Shown piece after piece: positions 13,485 to 23,471 of a DNA stretch of 29,061 bases. The notes below the pieces were generated by a model that saw only the letters and a list, made by a program, of their open reading frames with translations, was not told the DNA's origin and made no database searches. A program made the translations under genes and the position numbers. The stretch's first letter is position 1. Each line of letters begins with the position of its first letter. Origin of the DNA: Desulfobacterales bacterium (GTDB taxonomy: Bacteria > Desulfobacterota > Desulfobacteria > Desulfobacterales > C00003060); assembly GCA_030668505.1 (NCBI GenBank), contig DAOUTV010000001.1:1-29061 (forward strand). The letters run 5' to 3'.

Positions 13485-13781
13485 ATGTCTGCGAAAAATT
13501 TTAGTGTGAAACAAGATGAGCAGGGCATTTACCACTTTGAGGGTGAACTATCTATTCATGCGCTCGATCACCTCAAAGATTTTTTGGACAAGTCTCTCAA
13601 AGGTGGACAGGAGATTGCTATTTCGCTCGCCAAGGTTAGATTTATTGACACCGCGGCCCTTCAATTGCTCATTGCCTTTAAGAAACGGTTCGAACCAGAA
13701 GTTAAGTTGAAAATTTCTGAAGTCTCTTCTGAGGTAGAGAACATTTTATCTCTTTGCGGTCTCAAAACCATATTGGTGTAA
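13485..13781 (+). CDS. STAS domain protein (chemosensory-cluster associated)
   Basis: 98 aa: FEGELSI, ISLAKVRFIDTAALQLL. Lies directly upstream of cheY-cheA. Confidence 0.85.
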   Translation: MSAKNFSVKQDEQGIYHFEGELSIHALDHLKDFLDKSLKGGQEIAISLAKVRFIDTAALQLLIAFKKRFEPEVKLKISEVSSEVENILSLCGLKTILV

Positions 13782-13794
13782 GAGGTGCGCCTAG

Positions 13795-14178
13795 ATGGAA
13801 AAGAATATTTTAATTGTAGAAGATTCGCCTACCATGAGGTCGTCTGTTTCTTTTTGCTTACGTAACGCAGGTTATAGAGTGGCAGAAGCTATAGACGGTA
13901 AAGATGCCTTGAAAAAACTGCAATCCATGAATGACAAAAGTGAACCTCTGTCCCTGATTATCACCGACATTAATATGCCGCAGATGGATGGCATTACTTT
14001 TATTTCAGAAGTAAAAGAGACCGATTTTAAATTTGTTCCCATATTGGTCCTGACCACCGAGAGCGAAGAATCCGTGATAAAAAAAGGACGAGACGCAGGG
14101 GCTTCGGGCTGGCTGTTGAAGCCCTTTCAACCCGAACAGCTTCTGTGGGCTGTCAAAAAGGTCATTTGGACGAAATGA
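13795..14178 (+). CDS. cheY: Single-domain response regulator CheY
   Basis: ILIVEDS, IITDINMP, LVLTTES and WLLKPF; conserved D/T/K residues; ATGA overlap with cheA. Confidence 0.88.
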   Translation: MEKNILIVEDSPTMRSSVSFCLRNAGYRVAEAIDGKDALKKLQSMNDKSEPLSLIITDINMPQMDGITFISEVKETDFKFVPILVLTTESEESVIKKGRDAGASGWLLKPFQPEQLLWAVKKVIWTK

Positions 14179-16334
14179 TCGTAGATGACGAAACATTACA
14201 GATTTTTTTCTCCGAAACAGAAGAACTGCTTAAACTGGCAGAAGAAAGCCTTCTGTCTCTCGAGTCCTCACCCCAATCTGTATCAGATATAGAACAACTC
14301 TTCAGGTCGGTGCATACTCTAAAGAGTGGTGCGGGCATGGTGGGATATAATCGTATTTCAGATTATGCCCACCTTGTCGAAAGCTTGTTGGAACGTCTTA
14401 GAAGTGGCAAGTTGGCCGTTACCAATAACCTTATCACCTTCCTTCTGGACTCAATCGATTTTATGCGGTTTATGGTTGACAGGGTATCTAAGAGTGAAGA
14501 CGAAGTCGATCCGGAAGTTCTCGATAAGCGAAAAGATCAGGTAAGACGTTATTTGGGTGTAGATGGGATAAGCTCAAGTGAAAAGGAACCTGATCCGGTC
14601 AAAGCAGCTACCCAAGAACCCGCAAAAGAATTCAGTTTCTACAAGATCCATCTCAAGTTTCGAAGAGAGCTTTTCTATTCCGGCCAGGACCCGCTCCTGA
14701 TCCTTCTATCCCTATCTGAATTGGGGGAGTTTGTCCAGGTGGTACCCGATCTTTCTGAATTTCCGGATTTTGAAAACTTTTCCATGTATGATCTCTATAT
14801 CTCCTGGCAGATCATTATCAAGACCGAACAGTCTTATGAAGATATCGAAGATGTCTTCATGTTTGTTATAGATGACAACGACATTTGGATTGAAGATATT
14901 ACCAACCAATACAGGGAGGGTATTGATATAGACCTGGCTGAAAAGAAGCTCGGTCAAGTGCTTGTGGAAAAAGGCAAAATCACGGAGGAAGTATTAACCG
15001 ATGCTCTGAAGAAACAAAAGAGGCTTGGTGATATCTTAGTAGAGGACGGGAGGATTCATACTGAAGACCTTGAGAAGGCAGTGGCCGTACAGGAGGAGCG
15101 TCGCACGGTTTATCGCAAGACAACAATCCGTGTTGATGTGGAAAAGATTGATAGCCTTGTAAATCTGGGTGAAGAGATGGGGATTGGACTTGCTAAGGTG
15201 AAGACACTCTTTGAAAAATATACCGGCCCCGGACAAATGGAAATATCGGAAGAGGTCGAAAATCTCTTTAAGGTGAATCAAGATTTCCAGGAGCGAGTCC
15301 AAAGGGTTCGAATGTTTTCTTTGGAAGGAACATTCCATAGATTCCAACGCATGGCAAGGGATCTTGCTCTTCAGCAGAACAAGCAGATCAAAGTGATCTC
15401 GGCCGGACTTGATACCGAGTTAGACAAAGAGGTTATTGAATATAGTACTGACCCCCTAAAACATCTGGTCCGGAATTGTATTGATCACGGCATAGAGTCT
15501 CCGAAAGAAAGGGAGGCGAAGGGGAAACCGCCTACGGGGATCATCAAATTCGAGGCGTATCAGAGAGGTGGGAAAATCTTTATTGAAATTTGTGATGACG
15601 GAAAGGGCATCGATTTGAAAGGCATTCATCGGAAGGCTCTTGAAAGGGGTTGGATTGAACCTGAGCAAGCCCTGACTGAAGAAGCCTTGCTTGACTTTAT
15701 ATTTAAGCCGGGATTATCCACCAGCTCAAAAGTTTCGGAGATCTCCGGCAGAGGAGTTGGGATGGATGTGGTGAGGACACAGCTTAATCAAATCGGAGGC
15801 ACTATAGACATTCATACGGAAAAGGACAAAGGAACCACCTTTATCTTATGTCTGCCCCTGATATCTGCGTTTATGGAGGCCTTGCATGTGTTGGTGCAGG
15901 ACACTTCATTCTTAGTGCCATTGCAGACTGTTGTTGGAACGGAAAAATTCGACAAGAGACTTGTTAAAGGTATTGGAGCCCAGGAAAGGCTGTACCGATT
16001 TCGTGGTGATTATATACCGCTCGCAGATATGACGAAGATCTTACATATTGGTATGCCTCCTACAAACGGCAACACCACAGCAGTGGTCATCGTGGATACA
16101 GGAAAAAAAGTCTTTGGTATGCCTGTGGACGAGGTTTTGGATCCACAACAGATTATTGTCAAGACTCTTGAGACAAACTATCGCAGCGTCAAGGGGATAG
16201 CCGGCGCCACCATTTTGGGGGATGGCTCGGTCTCACTAGTATTGGATCTTTTGGGAGTGGAGGAAATTTTTTTCAGAAATTCCTTTAAAGGAGACGCGAC
16301 CCATGAAAGTGAAGAAAAGGTTGAACAGGGTTAA
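14175..16334 (+). CDS. cheA: Chemotaxis histidine kinase CheA with an internal MshEN-like tandem motif
   Basis: Hpt FRSVHTLKSGAG, IRVDVEKID, HLVRNCIDHGIE, DDGKGID, GRGVGMDVV and a C-terminal CheW-like domain (AGATILGDGSV). Start at ATG 14175 (719 aa). Confidence 0.96.
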   Translation: MIVDDETLQIFFSETEELLKLAEESLLSLESSPQSVSDIEQLFRSVHTLKSGAGMVGYNRISDYAHLVESLLERLRSGKLAVTNNLITFLLDSIDFMRFMVDRVSKSEDEVDPEVLDKRKDQVRRYLGVDGISSSEKEPDPVKAATQEPAKEFSFYKIHLKFRRELFYSGQDPLLILLSLSELGEFVQVVPDLSEFPDFENFSMYDLYISWQIIIKTEQSYEDIEDVFMFVIDDNDIWIEDITNQYREGIDIDLAEKKLGQVLVEKGKITEEVLTDALKKQKRLGDILVEDGRIHTEDLEKAVAVQEERRTVYRKTTIRVDVEKIDSLVNLGEEMGIGLAKVKTLFEKYTGPGQMEISEEVENLFKVNQDFQERVQRVRMFSLEGTFHRFQRMARDLALQQNKQIKVISAGLDTELDKEVIEYSTDPLKHLVRNCIDHGIESPKEREAKGKPPTGIIKFEAYQRGGKIFIEICDDGKGIDLKGIHRKALERGWIEPEQALTEEALLDFIFKPGLSTSSKVSEISGRGVGMDVVRTQLNQIGGTIDIHTEKDKGTTFILCLPLISAFMEALHVLVQDTSFLVPLQTVVGTEKFDKRLVKGIGAQERLYRFRGDYIPLADMTKILHIGMPPTNGNTTAVVIVDTGKKVFGMPVDEVLDPQQIIVKTLETNYRSVKGIAGATILGDGSVSLVLDLLGVEEIFFRNSFKGDATHESEEKVEQG

Positions 16335-16782
16335 TGGCTTGGTTTGCCTGATGTTTTTCTTTTTTTTATGCGCCACTGTTTGGGCGCAGAATCCCAAACC
16401 AACCTATGTGGGTTCTGATGCCTGTCAAGATTGCCATGAAACCGAATATAAAAACTTTAAGGCCTATGCCAAGAAGGCATACTCTTACAAGAGTATCAGG
16501 GAAATGAAAAAGGGCCTCACTGAGACAGAGTTTTGCAAGTGTTTCGAGTGTCACACCACTGGATATGGAAAACCGAGTGGGTTTCGCTCCGAACATGAGA
16601 CGCCCCACCTCATGAACGCAGGTTGCGAGGTCTGTCACGGCCCGGGGAGCCTTCATGTTGAAACCGGGGAACCAAAAGAGATAAAGGGGAGCCTGACGGC
16701 CAAGGACTGCGATGCCTGCCACAGCTCAGAACGTGTTAAGGCTTTTGATTACAAGCCACTGATCCACGGGGGAGCCCATTAG
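16303..16782 (+). CDS. Periplasmic tetraheme cytochrome c (c554-like family)
   Basis: AAGGAG RBS, signal peptide ending ATVWA-Q, four CxxCH motifs (CQDCH, CFECH, CEVCH, CDACH) and C-terminal GGAH. Confidence 0.9.
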   Translation: MKVKKRLNRVNGLVCLMFFFFLCATVWAQNPKPTYVGSDACQDCHETEYKNFKAYAKKAYSYKSIREMKKGLTETEFCKCFECHTTGYGKPSGFRSEHETPHLMNAGCEVCHGPGSLHVETGEPKEIKGSLTAKDCDACHSSERVKAFDYKPLIHGGAH

Positions 16783-16869
16783 TACTGTGTATATTTTGTT
16801 CATTATGTTTGTCGGGTTAACTCAACAAACCCAATAAACGAAATGAACTCAACTTGTGGAGGTAAGGTC

Positions 16870-19182
16870 ATGATAAAATGGACACATCAACTGCAAAGAA
16901 GAACCGGGCTTCGCGTCAAGATTCTTATGGCAACGATCTTGGTGGTCGGTGGATTCACCGGGGTATTTCTTTATCAAACAGTTTCTTTTCATACTCAGAG
17001 CGCCTTGAACCAGGTAGCGGAATCGAGCCAAAGCCTGCTTAAGAACACGTACAGTGCAATCAAATATCCCATGTCAGTTGGAGACAGCATTACAGTTGAG
17101 AAGCAATTAATGGACATAAAAAACCATATGGAAGGCACTGAGGTCTACATATCAGACTTCCACCAGATTGTTCAATACGCCTCAGAAGAAGACCGCATTC
17201 ATACCGGCATCCAGGACTATCTGTTGGGAAAAGAGACCAGAGAAGCGCTTACTGCTGCATTAAGGACTGGATTGTCGCCCCAAAAATCCATTACGGAAAT
17301 CAGAGACGGGGATCCTTTCTTGGTCACAATAATGCCACTTTTAAATGAAAGCTCTTGTCATCACTGCCATGGAGCAAGTCAAAAAGTGCTGGGCACCATG
17401 GTTGTCAAACACCCCGTAAAAGAGGTATACTCGTCTCTGGCCTCAGCCAGAAATCGCTTAATAGGGTTTTCTATTATCGAGATCATTGGGATCATATTAG
17501 TTATCAACTTTCTATTTAATCGACTGGTAACTAGACGCATTAAAAGCTTGGCGGCAAAGACGGGGTTAGTCTCAGCCGGAGATATCACAGTAGAGGTTCA
17601 TGATGATTCTCGGGACTCCATTGGAAGATTAACTCGGAATTTTAACCAGATGATTAAAAACATACGTGATCGGATGGAATATGCCAACAGCCTAAAACTG
17701 GGCATTTCAGAACCTTTTTTTATGGTCGATTCCGATATGAAGCTGACCTTTATGAATGATGCCGCTGCCAAATTTGCGGGTGTTCGCCCTGGAGATGTTC
17801 TGGGAAAAAATACCTGCATACAAGTATTCAAGAGTGATATGTGCGATACGGCGTGCCCCATAAAAAAGGCCATGGAAACCGGTGTAGCCACTGAGGGTTT
17901 CAGGGTCACTACAAAAAACGCTGAGGGGAAAGAAGTTCCCGCTATGGCGAGTGGCGCTGCTCTGAGGGATTCTGCGGGCAAGATTTTGGGCGGGTTTGAA
18001 ATGCTACGCGATATTTCTAAAGAAGTTGAAGCAGAATCCGGGTTGCGAGATTCTTACCACAGGGAAGAAGAAGCAAAGAAGAACTTACAGCATCGGGTAC
18101 AAAGCCTTTCAGACATCTTGAGTAGGGTTGCCGGGGGAGACTTAACAGTAAGGGCCGAAACGAGTGGTGAAAATGACTCGATGGACCGGTTGGTTCAGAG
18201 AACAAATGAAACGTTAGATCACATGAAAGAACTTATTGGACAGACAAAAAAATCCGCCCTAACAGTGGTCATGGGAGTCCGGCATATCTCTGAGGGAAAC
18301 CAGGAACTTTCACAGCGTACCCAGCAACAAGCAGCCACTGTGGAAGAGACGAGCGCAACTGTTGAAGAACTGGTATCCAATATTAACCAAAACGCTACTA
18401 ATACCCAGCGTGCCGACAATCTATCAAAAGAGGCTGTGGCTGTAGCTGTAGAGGGTGGACAGACAGTCGAAAGGACGGCTCAGGCCATGAACGACATGTC
18501 GGAAGGGAGTCGTAAGATAGTTGAGATGATGGATTTGATCAATGAAATAACCTTTCAGACCAACCTTCTTTCGATCAATGCTGCCGTGGAAGCGGCACGG
18601 GCCGGAGAACAGGGGCGGGGATTTAATGTTGTTGCCAACGAAATACGCAGTCTTGCAAAGAGAAGCTCAGAGGCGTCCAAGGATATTCAAAGCCTTGTCC
18701 GTGAGATCATGGATCAGGTTAGTACGGGTAAGGAATGGGTCGGCCAGCTGGAGAACGGATTTAAGAAGATCGTAGAAACCATTAAACAGGTCTCCGATGC
18801 TCTCAGTGAGGTTTCCTTAGCCACCCAGGAAAGTTCAAGAGGAATTGAGCAAATTGGCCAGGGAGTTAATGAGTTGAGTGATGTGATCTCACATAATGCA
18901 TCATTAGTGGATGGGCTGGCAGGTGCCACTGAACAACTCAACGAAAAAGCGGGTTTACTACAAGATATAACGGAAAAATTTACATTGGGCGATCAAGATA
19001 ATATTGAGGTTGAAGAGTTCAGTTTCAATAAGAGTATCCAAGATCAAAAGAAAGACAGGCGTGGAACCCAACCCCCTGCTACGAGGTCATTACGTGAGGA
19101 GTTGGCTACTCAGCACCCCATTGAAGAAAAACCGGAAGACTTGTTGGAAAAAGAGTTGGATGGGGGATTCGAGGAATTCTAA
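16870..19182 (+). CDS. Methyl-accepting chemotaxis protein: TM, periplasmic heme-c sensor, TM, HAMP, PAS, HAMP, MA
   Basis: GGAGGT RBS; two TM helices; CHHCH between them (17356-17370); HAMP; PAS; signalling hairpin FQTNLLSINAAVEAARAGEQGRGF; C-terminal GFEEF pentapeptide. Confidence 0.95.
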   Translation: MIKWTHQLQRRTGLRVKILMATILVVGGFTGVFLYQTVSFHTQSALNQVAESSQSLLKNTYSAIKYPMSVGDSITVEKQLMDIKNHMEGTEVYISDFHQIVQYASEEDRIHTGIQDYLLGKETREALTAALRTGLSPQKSITEIRDGDPFLVTIMPLLNESSCHHCHGASQKVLGTMVVKHPVKEVYSSLASARNRLIGFSIIEIIGIILVINFLFNRLVTRRIKSLAAKTGLVSAGDITVEVHDDSRDSIGRLTRNFNQMIKNIRDRMEYANSLKLGISEPFFMVDSDMKLTFMNDAAAKFAGVRPGDVLGKNTCIQVFKSDMCDTACPIKKAMETGVATEGFRVTTKNAEGKEVPAMASGAALRDSAGKILGGFEMLRDISKEVEAESGLRDSYHREEEAKKNLQHRVQSLSDILSRVAGGDLTVRAETSGENDSMDRLVQRTNETLDHMKELIGQTKKSALTVVMGVRHISEGNQELSQRTQQQAATVEETSATVEELVSNINQNATNTQRADNLSKEAVAVAVEGGQTVERTAQAMNDMSEGSRKIVEMMDLINEITFQTNLLSINAAVEAARAGEQGRGFNVVANEIRSLAKRSSEASKDIQSLVREIMDQVSTGKEWVGQLENGFKKIVETIKQVSDALSEVSLATQESSRGIEQIGQGVNELSDVISHNASLVDGLAGATEQLNEKAGLLQDITEKFTLGDQDNIEVEEFSFNKSIQDQKKDRRGTQPPATRSLREELATQHPIEEKPEDLLEKELDGGFEEF

Positions 19183-19634
19183 TGTCCGAAATTCAGCAAT
19201 ATGTAATCTTTTCACTAAATGAACAAATATATGGCATTGAAGTCCCCAAGATAAAAGAGGTCGTCAGCTATCGAAAGATCACGCCTCTTCCCAATATGGT
19301 TGGGTTTATCAAGGGGATTATTAATCTGAGGGGGGTTGTTCTGCCGGTATTTGATCTGAGAGAAAAGTTCAATCTTTCAGAAACCACTTACACCCCTTTT
19401 CACATAATCATTGTGATGGAGATATCGGGAAGAGCTATGGGGGTTATCGTGGACGAGATTTCGGACGTGGTGGAACTCTCACCCGATGAAGTTCAAGCCC
19501 CTTCCAATCTTCCTCCCGATGTACAAGCCGAATATATCAAAGGTATTGGGAAAAAAGAACATGAACTTATCGTCCTGTTGGATGTTGATCGACTCCTGAG
19601 TTCCAAAGAACTCGAGATCCTGGATGCTACCTGA
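19182..19634 (+). CDS. cheW: Coupling protein CheW
   Basis: QYVIFSL, YGIEV..IKEV, LPNMVGFIKGIINLRGVVLPVFDLR, GVIVDEISDV. TAATG overlap with the MCP. Confidence 0.95.
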   Translation: MSEIQQYVIFSLNEQIYGIEVPKIKEVVSYRKITPLPNMVGFIKGIINLRGVVLPVFDLREKFNLSETTYTPFHIIIVMEISGRAMGVIVDEISDVVELSPDEVQAPSNLPPDVQAEYIKGIGKKEHELIVLLDVDRLLSSKELEILDAT

Positions 19635-19639
19635 TATGT

Positions 19640-19759
19640 ATGAGCTGTCCTCTTATGGTCCCCTGTCTGAATGAAACAGATTTTGAGGGATACGGGGCTT
19701 TGTCCACACTGCAAATTACTACAGTACTCCAGCGCTTCATCCCGGAAGGGGAAGGATAG
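19640..19759 (+). pseudogene. Possible remnant of a deleted cheR
   Basis: 130-bp gap exactly where cheR usually lies. LNETDFE followed, after a one-base frame change, by IRGFVH weakly resembles the first helix of CheR. Speculative. Confidence 0.2.
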
Positions 19760-19764
19760 GGGCT

Positions 19765-20349
19765 TTGTATCAATTCTACAGCAACAGGTTGAAGAAGACA
19801 GTCATTATGCTCATGCCGGGTGAGTATTTTGCCACTCAAAAGGATCAGGTGCTTTACACCGTTGTGGGCTCATGTATCGCCACTTGTATCTATGATAGGG
19901 AACAAAAAATAGCCGGGATGAACCATTTTTTACTTCCGGGAATGGTACGTCCTGATGATATGCTGACATCTGATCTAGGCCGATACGGCATGTTTGCCAT
20001 GGAGCTGTTGATTGGCGAACTCATTAAGTTGGGAGCCCGGAGAGGGAAACTTGAGGCTAAGTTATTTGGGGGGGGCAATGTATTGAAATTTAGAAGCTGT
20101 GACGGCGATGTGACCAGGTCCAATATTCGTTTTGCAAAAAAATTCTTAGAGCTGGAAGGAATCCCTGCAGTGAGCCAAGATCTTGGAGGGAACGGCGGAA
20201 GAAAGATCTTGTTTTTTAGTGATAGTGATAAAGTCCTCTTGAAACGATTTGATATTAGGAAAGAGCGATCATTCATTAAATCCGAAGAGACTTATAAGAA
20301 AACCATTTTTCAAGAACCACATATAAAATCACCACTAAGGCTGTTTTAA
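19765..20349 (+). CDS. cheD: Chemoreceptor glutamine deamidase CheD
   Basis: LMPGEYF, TVVGSCIA (catalytic Cys), AGMNHFLLP, RYG..AMELLI, EAKLFGGG. TTG start, exact start uncertain. Confidence 0.93.
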   Translation: MYQFYSNRLKKTVIMLMPGEYFATQKDQVLYTVVGSCIATCIYDREQKIAGMNHFLLPGMVRPDDMLTSDLGRYGMFAMELLIGELIKLGARRGKLEAKLFGGGNVLKFRSCDGDVTRSNIRFAKKFLELEGIPAVSQDLGGNGGRKILFFSDSDKVLLKRFDIRKERSFIKSEETYKKTIFQEPHIKSPLRLF

Positions 20350-20352
20350 TAT

Positions 20353-21387
20353 ATGAAGCCTATCCGCGTGCTTATTGTTGACGATTCACCCATAGTGCAA
20401 TCAGTGCTGACGAGTCTCTTGTCTGATGAACCTGATTTTGAGGTATTGGGAACCGCTTCTGATCCCTTTGAGGCAAACGATTTGATTGTGAAAAAAAGGC
20501 CTGATGTGATCACACTGGACATTGAGATGCCTCGAATGGATGGAATCACCTTTCTTAAACGACTTATGAGCTTCCGTCCCGTCCCGGTGATCATGATCAG
20601 TTCCTATACCCGCGAAAACAGCATTTGCACCTTCGAGGCCCTGAATGCCGGGGCCGTTGATTTTGTTGCCAAACCCACAGGGGATGTCAGGAGCGGTCTT
20701 CGGAAAATGAAACATGAGATTACCACCAAATTAAGAGCTGCAAAACGGGCCAAAATAAAACCCTCCGGACTATTTGGCAAATCAAGAAGACTAGTATCGA
20801 TAGGGAAAAACAGGGCATCGAACAAGATCATCGTCATCGGGGCCTCAACAGGCGGAACTCAGGCCATACAAACACTGCTGGAGTGCATGCCTTCAAATGT
20901 AAATGGAATTGTCATTGTCCAGCACATGCCGGTTCGCTATACAAATCCCTTTGCCCAGAGGTTGAACGGATTGTTTCTAATGAACATTAAGGAGGCCGAG
21001 GACGGTGATCGCATTGACAAAGGAAATGTACTGGTGGCGCCTGGTGGGCGACACTTGCAGGTAGCAAAGGACCCTATGGGATATTATGTACAGCTGCAAG
21101 ACGGTCGGCCGGTCAAACACCAGCGGCCTTCAGTTGATATCATGTTCCATTCGGTTGCAAAGACTGCTGCCTCCGACGGCATTGGCATACTCCTGACAGG
21201 GATGGGAGATGACGGAGCCGATGGCTTGCTGGCTATGAAGCAGGCTGGGGCTTTTACCGTTGCACAGGATGAAGCCAGTTCGGTAATTTTTGGTATGCCA
21301 GGAGCGGCTATAGAACGTGGTGCAGCTATAGTGGTGGCTGAGCTGGATGATATAGCAAGTGTTGTTCTTTCGTCGCTTAAGACGTGA
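20353..21387 (+). CDS. cheB: Chemotaxis methylesterase CheB (REC + esterase)
   Basis: REC (LDIEMP, VAKP), GASTGG, VQHMP, RPSVD, LTGMGDDGA and IFGMP; Ser/His/Asp triad present. Confidence 0.97.
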   Translation: MKPIRVLIVDDSPIVQSVLTSLLSDEPDFEVLGTASDPFEANDLIVKKRPDVITLDIEMPRMDGITFLKRLMSFRPVPVIMISSYTRENSICTFEALNAGAVDFVAKPTGDVRSGLRKMKHEITTKLRAAKRAKIKPSGLFGKSRRLVSIGKNRASNKIIVIGASTGGTQAIQTLLECMPSNVNGIVIVQHMPVRYTNPFAQRLNGLFLMNIKEAEDGDRIDKGNVLVAPGGRHLQVAKDPMGYYVQLQDGRPVKHQRPSVDIMFHSVAKTAASDGIGILLTGMGDDGADGLLAMKQAGAFTVAQDEASSVIFGMPGAAIERGAAIVVAELDDIASVVLSSLKT

Positions 21388-21409: not shown

Positions 21410-22321
21410 ATGGCCAAGATACTTCTTATAGACGATAGTCGTCTGATTGCCCATGCAGCCAAGAAAACTTTGACCAGGGTGGGACACGAGATTATTTTAG
21501 CTGAGGATGGCGTCGCCGGCCTGGAGAAAGCAAAGTCTGAACAGCCTGACTTGATCCTGTTGGATTTAATCATGCCCGGTATGGACGGATACCAGGTGTG
21601 TCAAAAATTAATAAAGGAGGAAAGCTCTAAGGAGACACCTGTCATTATGCTTACGTCAAAGTCTGAGCCTGCCGACAAGGTAAAGGCTCTGAAAATAGGG
21701 GCTTTGGACTATGTGACCAAGCCTTTTGACGAAGCCGAGTTGGTAGCTCGTGTGAATATACACTTACGACTCAAAGAGCTCTATGAAACGGTTCAGGAGA
21801 AAAATCGGCAGCTCCAGGACCTGGCCAACAAAGACGGACTGACGGATTTGTTCAATCATCGATATTTCCACGAGCAGTTGTCAAAGGACTTTTTACGCGC
21901 CAGACGGTATCATGAGTCTTTGACGTGCGTTTTGTTGGACATAGACCACTTTAAGAAGTTTAACGATACACACGGTCACCTGACAGGGGACGTCGTATTG
22001 AAAGCACTTGGATGCATCATCAAAGATTCGATCAGGGACAGCGATTTTGCGGCCAGATACGGGGGTGAAGAGTTTGCGCTCGTTTTGTATCATACCGATG
22101 GGCCGGGGGGATTTGATGTGGCTGAACGGCTCCGGCGGAGGGTGGATGATAATGAAGTACATGATAAAGGCAACGTGCTGCATGTCAGCATCAGTGCGGG
22201 AGTTGCTACGTTTCCACACAAGCTGATCCACAATTCCAAGGAGCTGATTGAATGTACTGATAAGGCACTTTATCAGGCCAAGAACAACGGCCGAAACCGA
22301 GTAGAGAAATTTGACGGATAA
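21410..22321 (+). CDS. REC-GGDEF diguanylate cyclase (WspR/PleD-like)
   Basis: REC (LLDLIMP, MLTS, VTKP), DGLTDLFN, DIDHFKKFNDTHGH, I-site RDSD five residues before an intact GGEEF, KNNGRN. Confidence 0.94.
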   Translation: MAKILLIDDSRLIAHAAKKTLTRVGHEIILAEDGVAGLEKAKSEQPDLILLDLIMPGMDGYQVCQKLIKEESSKETPVIMLTSKSEPADKVKALKIGALDYVTKPFDEAELVARVNIHLRLKELYETVQEKNRQLQDLANKDGLTDLFNHRYFHEQLSKDFLRARRYHESLTCVLLDIDHFKKFNDTHGHLTGDVVLKALGCIIKDSIRDSDFAARYGGEEFALVLYHTDGPGGFDVAERLRRRVDDNEVHDKGNVLHVSISAGVATFPHKLIHNSKELIECTDKALYQAKNNGRNRVEKFDG

Positions 22322-22360: not shown

Positions 22361-22987
22361 ATGAAAGATAGCAATGCGCCAACTGAAGAAGGGATCCAAA
22401 GGATCAACCGGCTCCAGCGCGAATTTTTCAGTGGACTCATCCACGTTTTTGACCCGCCTTTACCGGAAGGTGTGCCGGAGCGTCTGAAAAAGATTGTGGC
22501 ATCCGGCAAGATAGCTAAAGGAGATGTTGTACTGGATGTTGGTACGGGCACAGGGATATTGGTCCCCCTGATTCAAGCGTATGAGCCTGAGGCCATCTTT
22601 GCCTGTGATCTTTCGGAGGTTATGCTGGCTCATTTACACGAACAGTACCCGTATGCAAAGACCATCGCGAAAGATGTACGGGATCTCACCCTGCCTGAAG
22701 ACAGTATTGATGTGGTCTTCATGAATGCCTGTTATCCTAACATTGTGGATAAAGACAGAGCCTTTGCGAATACTAGTCGGATGATGAAACCAGATGGGCG
22801 CATAGTGATCAGCCATCCTTTGGGAAAATCATTTGTTGAATTATTAAAGGAAAAATCGCCCTTTCCTCTGGATGACTTTCCCGAGAAACCTGATGCTAAA
22901 GTTTTACTTAAGCATTATGGTTTTGACATGACCGACTTTGTAGACGAGGAAAAGCTCTATATTTTGGTAGCCACCAAGCAGCACTAG
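22361..22987 (+). CDS. Class I SAM-dependent methyltransferase
   Basis: VLDVGTGTG motif I, ACDLSEVML, MMKPDGRIVISH. Confidence 0.88.
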   Translation: MKDSNAPTEEGIQRINRLQREFFSGLIHVFDPPLPEGVPERLKKIVASGKIAKGDVVLDVGTGTGILVPLIQAYEPEAIFACDLSEVMLAHLHEQYPYAKTIAKDVRDLTLPEDSIDVVFMNACYPNIVDKDRAFANTSRMMKPDGRIVISHPLGKSFVELLKEKSPFPLDDFPEKPDAKVLLKHYGFDMTDFVDEEKLYILVATKQH

Positions 22988-23021
22988 GACTAATACCTGA
23001 TAATTAATTGGAGGAAGGAGT

Positions 23022-23471
23022 ATGGCTGGTGGATTGGACGTAATTATCGTTGACGACGAACCGGGCGTATGTGAAGTGGTCTATGGAATCATCAGGCGAT
23101 TCTATACGTGGGGCGACGTACTTGCCATTACAAATGCCGATGAGGCAATAGCGTATTGTCTGAGTCGTGATACCGGTATTGCGATTTTTGTAGTAGATGT
23201 ATTTCTTGGTGAAAAGAGTGGGTTTTATTTACTTAATATGATTGAGAAAAAGTTTCCCACAATTTATCAAGACACAATTATGATCACTGGAAATGCCAAT
23301 GATGATGTTGTGAACATGTGTGTGGCCTCAGACGTAAACTATTTGTTGGAAAAACCTATCAAACCATTCGCATTGCAGCTTGCCGTAAGGGCGATTGTGG
23401 CGAAATACCTGAAATTTGCGAAGAAGCTGTTGCGAGATCCAGCTTTTGCCAAGAGCGTTGCAAAATTTTGA
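23022..23471 (+). CDS. Single-domain response regulator receiver with C-terminal helix
   Basis: Strong GGAGG RBS; IIVDDE, FVVDVFL, IMITG and LLEKP. Confidence 0.85.
   Translation: MAGGLDVIIVDDEPGVCEVVYGIIRRFYTWGDVLAITNADEAIAYCLSRDTGIAIFVVDVFLGEKSGFYLLNMIEKKFPTIYQDTIMITGNANDDVVNMCVASDVNYLLEKPIKPFALQLAVRAIVAKYLKFAKKLLRDPAFAKSVAKF

Follow-up and report, generated by a model that had tools for sequence, protein, structure and literature searches.

Can c-di-GMP, the second messenger cyclic diguanylate, act directly on CheA, the central histidine kinase of a chemosensory pathway? The question is raised by a cheA gene in a stretch of 29,061 nucleotides from a Desulfobacterales bacterium (GenBank assembly GCA_030668505.1, contig DAOUTV010000001.1, positions 1 to 29,061 of the forward strand), which as a whole is referred to here as the window. 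Known points of entry of c-di-GMP into chemotaxis are CheR (PilZ adaptors), the receptors (PilZ domains), CheY-like Cle proteins and motor brakes; we know of no report in which the nucleotide controls CheA itself. The CheA of the window carries two tandem MshEN motifs which, judged by sequence, form a compact MshEN_N module (residues 268-316; 49 residues compared with the usual 53) that has no MshEN_C subdomain and is inserted between a P2-like region and P3. The reading we lean towards is that this compact module binds c-di-GMP and tunes the kinase. The module occurs in roughly one third of the sampled CheA-type kinases of the phylum, and the literature that could be searched holds no functional study of it.

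14175..16334, + strand: cheA, layout P1-P2(like)-MshEN_N-P3-P4-P5
14946..15017, + strand: MshEN motif 1 (K268-Q291), 24 residues
15018..15020, + strand: single-residue spacer K292, joining motifs 1 and 2
15021..15092, + strand: MshEN motif 2 (R293-Q316), 24 residues

Residue numbers are those of the 729-aa form of CheA; subtracting 10 gives the numbering of the 719-aa form.

Identity of the tandem motif pair

A preliminary description of the window had read these two segments as MshEN-like. Both motif strings that it quoted are found exactly at 14946-15017 and 15021-15092 of the translated CheA, with all four deviations that it listed: lysine at position 1 of motif 1, lysine or arginine after the turn glycine, valine at position 21 of motif 2, and the one-residue spacer. 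It placed the pair between Hpt/P2 and the dimerisation domain, and the module indeed sits between a weak P2-like region (about 166-240) and P3 (326-387). The hidden Markov model (HMM) search for MshEN that it had put forward as a check returned NCBIfam NF053729 ('cyclic di-GMP-binding domain, MshE-related') on residues 268-316 with 47.1 bits and an E-value of 1.6e-12; the match covers positions 1-53 of this 53-position model and lies above its cut-off of 38 bits. This curated model and profile alignments to solved c-di-GMP-binding domains bear out the MshEN-like identity. The NCBIfam model of the c-di-GMP-activated glycosyltransferase NfrB matches CheA too, via the MshEN region of NfrB.

Compared with the consensus (R/K/L)LGxx(L/V/I)(L/V/I)xxG(hydrophobic)(L/V/I)xxxxLxxxLxxQ, positions 1, 2, 3, 6, 7, 10, 12, 17 and 24 fit in both CheA motifs. 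At position 21, motif 1 conforms and motif 2 has valine for leucine; position 11 is lysine or arginine in both, as in PilF GSPII-C. A looser pattern admitting both motifs gave three matches in 1.43 million residues of six-frame open reading frames from the 1.98-Mb genome, two of them being the CheA pair, and none in 20 shuffles. On sequence grounds, the pair is more than a chance resemblance.

Searching PDB sequences with the CheA segment in phmmer retrieved Thermus thermophilus PilF and Vibrio cholerae MshE. A family profile built from 45 CheA modules (A2) aligns in register with residues 7-61 of MshE (PDB 5HTL; E 2.6e-9), with PilF GSPII-B/C and with PilB proteins. The sole structural difference in these alignments is a loop that is 4-7 residues shorter in CheA, the extra residues (four in MshE, six in Geobacter PilB) following the 'QK' that ends motif 1.

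Predicted structure of the module

An AlphaFold2 (AF2) model of an 81-aa segment with flanks was poor, with a predicted local distance difference test (pLDDT) score of 60.7. A 63-aa segment with a broader alignment reached a pLDDT of 87 and was modelled with helices at residues 269-275, 281-290, 294-300 and 306-324 and a three-residue turn, Q291-K292-R293. The modelled topology is the twofold helix-turn-helix of MshEN_N, and the fourth helix continues towards P3. A shape search of the ESM Atlas led to CheA clusters of Nitrospirota, Thermodesulfobacteriota and Spirochaetota, with template modelling (TM) scores of 0.65-0.87 for the first three clusters and 0.49 for the Spirochaetota one, and also to MshEN-T2SSE ATPase, PatA_N and CheX-fusion proteins.

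The only Pfam match in the segment is a sub-threshold one, of DUF4388/PatA_N to residues 268-318 (21 bits, cut-off 25). Together with the PatA_N clusters retrieved by shape from the ESM Atlas (TM 0.55), it suggests that the N-terminal region of PATAN contains an MshEN_N-like helical unit.

Conservation at the positions that contact the ligand in MshE

The tandem motif is kept in all alignable members of a set of 116 homologues retrieved with CheA region 150-400. In a set of 39 homologues with pairwise identities below 80%, motif 1 keeps G270 and L273 in 100% and Q291 and A287 in 92%, while motif 2 keeps G295 and L298 in 97%, G302 in 92% and Q316 in 90%. The best-kept positions are those that contact c-di-GMP in MshE, namely the amides after the RLG glycine, the motif-final glutamines and the leucine clusters. 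The mean frequency of the major residue is 0.63-0.67 in the module, 0.65 in P3, 0.64 in P5 and 0.54 in the P1-P2 linker. Since conservation peaks on ligand-contact positions and the module is kept as well as P3 and P5, it is unlike a passive spacer. The spacer residue K292 is itself lysine in 87-90% of homologues and aligns with the lysine of the 'QK' closing motif 1 in MshE, PilF and PilB, for which the passages on MshEN and PilF drawn on here from two papers describe no role.

Probable capacity to bind c-di-GMP

Among known binders, MshE loses c-di-GMP binding through G11L and G40I, and PilF through Q190E plus Q218E. The isolated MshEN_N binds c-di-GMP without MshEN_C, with a dissociation constant (KD) of 0.35 µM. 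According to the relevant sections of Neissner et al. 2024 (PMC11731258), PilF GSPII-B has K167 and L196 at position 1 and binds with a KD of 6 nM, and the consensus was widened to (R/K/L)LG. Lysine at position 1 was therefore rejected as a weakness of the CheA site. The basic residue after the turn glycine (GK) is also present in PilF GSPII-C.

The CheA-MshEN_N fusion is not new. In the sections of Wang et al. 2016 (Nat Commun 7:12481, PMC5013675) drawn on here, CheA is among the MshEN partners and the same architecture appears in Suppl. Table 4, in agreement with the earlier remark that MshEN-like segments have been predicted in chemotaxis proteins. Suppl. Table 6 of that paper (PMC5013675) gives a KD of 2.6 µM for c-di-GMP binding by fragment 261-390 of the Aeromonas veronii CheA (EKB11881). 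The preliminary description knew of no direct c-di-GMP control of a CheA; we likewise found no such study, but binding by a CheA fragment had already been measured. The fusion has been in print since 2016 and is widespread in the phylum, and what is particular here is the compact-spacer form. That the CheA module of the window binds c-di-GMP appears quite likely.

Domain layout of CheA and proposed mode of action

The CheA frame on the + strand (window 14145-16334) has 729 codons and encodes 729 aa, open from GTG 14145. The true start is likely to be ATG 14175, giving 719 aa, because the closest homologues (95% identity) are 719 aa long and begin at that methionine. This ATG shares ATGA with the cheY stop. 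The domains of the protein other than the module are:

14193..14456, + strand: P1 (Hpt) of CheA, residues 17-104 (Pfam PF01627, E 2.4e-16)
14640..14864, + strand: divergent P2-like (CheY-binding) region of CheA, residues about 166-240 (Pfam sub-threshold only)
15120..15305, + strand: P3 dimerisation domain of CheA (H-kinase_dim, PF02895), residues 326-387
15450..15860, + strand: P4 ATP-binding kinase domain of CheA (HATPase_c, PF02518), residues 436-572 (E 1.7e-16)
15879..16256, + strand: P5 CheW-like domain of CheA (PF01584), residues 579-704 (E 5.6e-20)

Pfam Hpt, H-kinase_dim, HATPase_c and CheW all exceed their cut-offs, as expected of a CheA histidine kinase, and the phospho-accepting histidine of P1 lies within ..SVHTLKSG... 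The NCBIfam CheA model matches at E 8e-118, yet under its equivalog cut-off. Matches to the P2-like region (Pfam P2, E 0.018; CheY-binding, E 0.01) are both below threshold. The Pfam scan of the protein detected no REC domain.

In the proposed mechanism, one c-di-GMP would lie across both motifs, as in MshE and PilF. Polar contacts would come from the two motif-final glutamines and from the backbone amides that follow each xLG glycine, and the guanines would stack on leucine and valine residues and on the aliphatic parts of K268 and R293. With the site occupied, P1/P2 would be differently free to move, or differently oriented, with respect to the P3-P4 core, and autophosphorylation or phosphotransfer would be adjusted in this way. 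P3 begins about 10 residues past Q316. Occupancy is expected to alter the reach of P1/P2 to P4, since the fourth helix of the module leads on into the dimerisation helix of P3. We infer both the response of the kinase and its sign, and hold the case for and against an effect of c-di-GMP on CheA signalling to be evenly balanced. Probable targets of the kinase are CheY, CheB and a REC-GGDEF cyclase encoded in the same operon.

The operon and its diguanylate cyclase

By Pfam, the operon has the order STAS-CheY-CheA-cytochrome c-MCP-CheW-CheD-CheB-REC-GGDEF, where MCP is a methyl-accepting chemotaxis protein. The genes around cheA are:

13485..13781, + strand: STAS-domain protein, first gene of the cluster (Pfam PF01740)
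13795..14178, + strand: CheY-like single-domain response regulator (Pfam PF00072, E 4e-28)
16303..16782, + strand: small multihaem cytochrome c (Pfam Cytochrome_C554, E 2e-17)
16843..19182, + strand: MCP with HAMP, PAS and signalling domain (Pfam)
19182..19634, + strand: CheW (Pfam)
19765..20349, + strand: CheD (Pfam)
20353..21387, + strand: CheB, REC plus methylesterase (Pfam)
21410..22321, + strand: REC-GGDEF diguanylate cyclase (Pfam GGDEF, E 5.9e-46)

Desulfatibacillum aliphaticivorans CP001322 (locus L006) shares this gene order, as do seven or more other loci, with CheA identities that go down to about 45%. The STAS gene holds the same position in L006, L007, L009 and L013-L019. The start of the cytochrome c gene overlaps the 3' end of cheA, and the gene precedes that of the PAS-MCP; a cytochrome c follows cheA in L006, L007, L013, L014 and L018 and is absent from this place in L009, L015 and L016. 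Downstream of the cyclase, the window (22361-23471) encodes a class I S-adenosylmethionine (SAM) methyltransferase (Methyltransf_11, not CheR) and then a single-domain REC protein (23022-23471), neither of which was seen at that place in the relatives examined.

The REC-GGDEF protein has the signature GGEEF with the I-site RDSD (RxxD) five residues upstream of it, and it has aspartate at the base-selecting position. The combination of GGEEF and aspartate goes with c-di-GMP synthesis only, and GGDE[F/Y] is the sole signature in natural Ser/Thr (Hypr) enzymes (PMC6456294). The enzyme is therefore predicted to make c-di-GMP rather than cyclic GMP-AMP (cGAMP), and its assignment as a Hypr enzyme was rejected on the GGEEF signature plus the selectivity aspartate. 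These residues also bear on the ligand of the module, which might be a different cyclic dinucleotide; some relatives in the phylum use 3',3'-cGAMP, for example. MshEN can bind cGAMP too, according to the sections of Wang et al. 2016 (PMC5013675) used here, and Hypr GGDEF enzymes with the REC-GGDEF layout exist in Geobacter. Yet the cyclase of the operon carries the GGEEF and base-selecting aspartate tied to c-di-GMP synthesis (PMC6456294), and the CheA motif residues match c-di-GMP binders, so that we consider a different dinucleotide very improbable.

The cyclase is likely to be the output of the pathway and possibly the source of the module's ligand. Its product could then act back on the kinase that activates it, but such self-feedback from the operon cyclase onto CheA seems doubtful. 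The operon has no cheR (gap 19635-19764), nor does the L007 cluster, while most relatives have cheW-cheR-cheD. Second-messenger feedback on CheA itself might stand alongside receptor methylation or replace it, which we likewise regard as unlikely. If true, a feedback loop of this kind would govern adaptation or bistability in a pathway that senses redox state (cytochrome/PAS-MCP) and sets the level of c-di-GMP. The operon type offers a self-contained test system, with a kinase that has a sensor module, a cyclase output and a cultivable relative in D. aliphaticivorans.

The sole cheR found in the genome, the assembly of which is 82% complete, lies on contig C78 (C78:4118-4696), where a PilZ-domain gene (C78:6091-6357) is about 1.4 kb away, an arrangement reminiscent of the MapZ-CheR1 pairing of Pseudomonas aeruginosa.

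Distribution of the module and the host genome

All 20 further loci fetched from profile hits in the phylum encode Hpt-MshEN-CheA proteins. In a sample of 61 phylum genomes, 41 of the 113 CheA-type matches, from 26 genomes, align through the module. The module profile alone matches in 234 of 301 phylum genomes, a figure that includes PilB-type proteins. A profile search of 1.84 billion representatives gave 13,593 clusters at E <= 0.001; this result cannot be used for counting CheAs because the top matches carry many tandem MshEN repeats.

Three sister clusters of the STAS-CheY-CheA-...-CheB type end in a REC-SpoIIE/PP2C phosphatase and not in REC-GGDEF (L008:9992-18045, L017:5727-14865 and L019:5844-14888). 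Their modules have histidine for the first motif-final glutamine and threonine or isoleucine for the leucine at position 2 (Leu2) of motif 2, and one of them additionally has lysine for the second glutamine and no second turn glycine. This hints at relaxed constraint on the module where the output is not a cyclase, in three loci that are probably not independent; nature may provide here an example of a ligand site in decay.

The host assembly encodes one CheA, one CheR (on another contig), four GGDEF genes, ten PilZ matches and two other MshEN proteins. FliG (FliG_C) was not found on any contig of this 82%-complete assembly. With no FliG_C match and a single CheA, it is plausible that the Che pathway is non-flagellar and has c-di-GMP as its output. 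On host contig C245 (L001:1057-1755, + strand), a 232-aa protein combines a Cys-rich N-terminal half (several CxxC pairs) with four tandem MshEN-type motifs; its first motif pair is 1-2 residues apart, and its NF053729 score of 47.2 bits is the highest in the genome.

Weighing of ligand binding and kinase control

Several observations weigh against binding and kinase control by the module. The one-residue spacer is a true oddity of the CheA module and is rare: spacers in the alignments of tested binders by Wang et al. range from 3 to about 10 residues (5 in MshE), compared with 1 here, and we found no binding data for CheA modules with a one-residue spacer. Across 150 diverse MshEN proteins with 428 adjacent motif pairs, a spacer of 5 residues is the mode (180 pairs) and a spacer of 1 residue occurs in nine pairs from six proteins; of these proteins, two (713 and 725 aa) align with the CheA-module profile over its full length, and another has the size of a CheA. 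The turn glycine of motif 1 is replaced by serine in 36% of homologues, and position 1 of motif 2 is poorly kept (methionine, lysine or arginine, often methionine). Foldseek searches of the PDB and VIA-align comparison with 48,161 chains placed no MshEN structure near either AF2 model (best Z 3.3-3.4), for a domain of only about 50 residues. Neither the whole CheA nor any of three excised segments matched Pfam PF05157, with hits admitted up to E 10. This model spans the MshEN_C subdomain as well, so the CheA segment is an insertion of MshEN_N only, like the 'MshEN_N' fusions listed by Wang et al. A literature search, which covered few subscription journals, found no paper reporting an effect of c-di-GMP on the activity of any CheA. 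Finally, no GGDEF or EAL gene was detected in the fetched stretch (8-20 kb) of 13 of the 30 clusters examined, and the operon cyclase is for this reason not specific support for binding.

Some of these points would also be expected if the module were a ligand-free structural element, a rigid four-helix spacer or an extension of the P3 bundle that derives from MshEN_N and has lost binding through its one-residue loop. Such an origin would account for a spacer outside the range of tested binders and for the lack of a structural match to MshEN with Foldseek and VIA-align; XpsE and PilF GSPII-A are precedents for MshEN-like domains without binding, and the substitutions in the SpoIIE-ending clusters indicate degeneration within the lineage. 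However, conservation is strongest on the ligand contacts (both G3 and both Q24) and not on core hydrophobics alone, the segment passes the cut-off of the curated HMM, and the three-residue alpha-alpha turn is modelled at high confidence. A purely structural role is thus rather improbable, and we continue to favour a ligand-binding module. The compact form with its one-residue spacer could show how much of the 53-residue motif binding needs.

In the representatives search, a further CheA-sized protein (P0169, 694 aa) has four MshEN motifs with start-to-start distances of 26, 25 and 26 residues. It would be a case of two compact modules in tandem.

The clusters without a detected cyclase are of the ordinary CheY-CheA-MCP-CheW-CheR-CheD-CheB type, and their modules are very well kept. 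The idea of the module as a marker of Che clusters that end in a cyclase was accordingly rejected. The preliminary description had argued that a cyclase in the same operon makes binding plausible; the cyclase is there with its motifs intact, but it is weaker support than it looks, given how common the module is in GGDEF-free clusters. The same 13 CheAs are compatible with a module that binds c-di-GMP from the general cellular pool and gates the pathway by lifestyle state, with no self-feedback loop. The presence of the module in about 41 of 113 CheA-type kinases of the phylum points in this direction, as do the three further GGDEF genes and the ten PilZ matches of the host genome, which imply other sources of c-di-GMP. 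On the other hand, clusters of this type retain a terminal REC-GGDEF gene in genomes far apart from one another, which makes a local source plausible, and the two readings are not exclusive. Taken as a full account that leaves no room for a loop, the general pool appears somewhat unlikely; as the ligand source it is at least as likely as feedback from the operon's own cyclase, because the same module is found in cyclase-free Che clusters.

Comparison with known systems

One of the closest known systems is the Aeromonas veronii CheA, in which the module likewise stands directly before P3. The first motif of the A. veronii module is degenerate, starting with MLG, and the spacer is long (about 10 residues), whereas the CheA described here has a one-residue spacer and two motifs near consensus.

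With V. cholerae MshE (MshEN, PDB 5HTL), the CheA module shares two 24-residue motifs in register, the 'QK' ending motif 1 and, as modelled, the twofold helix-turn-helix. In contrast to MshE, which has a 5-residue spacer and an MshEN_C subdomain and regulates a T2SSE ATPase, CheA has four fewer loop residues, no MshEN_C and a histidine kinase as its partner. The best sequence matches among solved structures are T. thermophilus PilF GSPII-B/C (PDB 8PDK, 6EJF, 6F8L). GSPII-B shares the lysine at position 1 of motif 1 and GSPII-C the lysine after the turn glycine; both differ from the CheA module in having spacers of 5-7 residues and a C-terminal subdomain and in being fused to a traffic ATPase.

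At the level of the whole cluster, the comparison is with the Wsp system of Pseudomonas, a chemosensory pathway with the REC-GGDEF protein WspR as its sole output and with CheR in the cluster, whose kinase WspE combines CheA with REC and has no MshEN module. The two share an MCP-CheW-CheA-CheB set and an output REC-GGDEF cyclase with an I-site. Unlike Wsp, the cluster of the window adds STAS, CheY, CheD and a multihaem cytochrome, has a CheA without REC, and contains no cheR in the operon. The cluster therefore resembles Wsp functionally and is not a Wsp orthologue.

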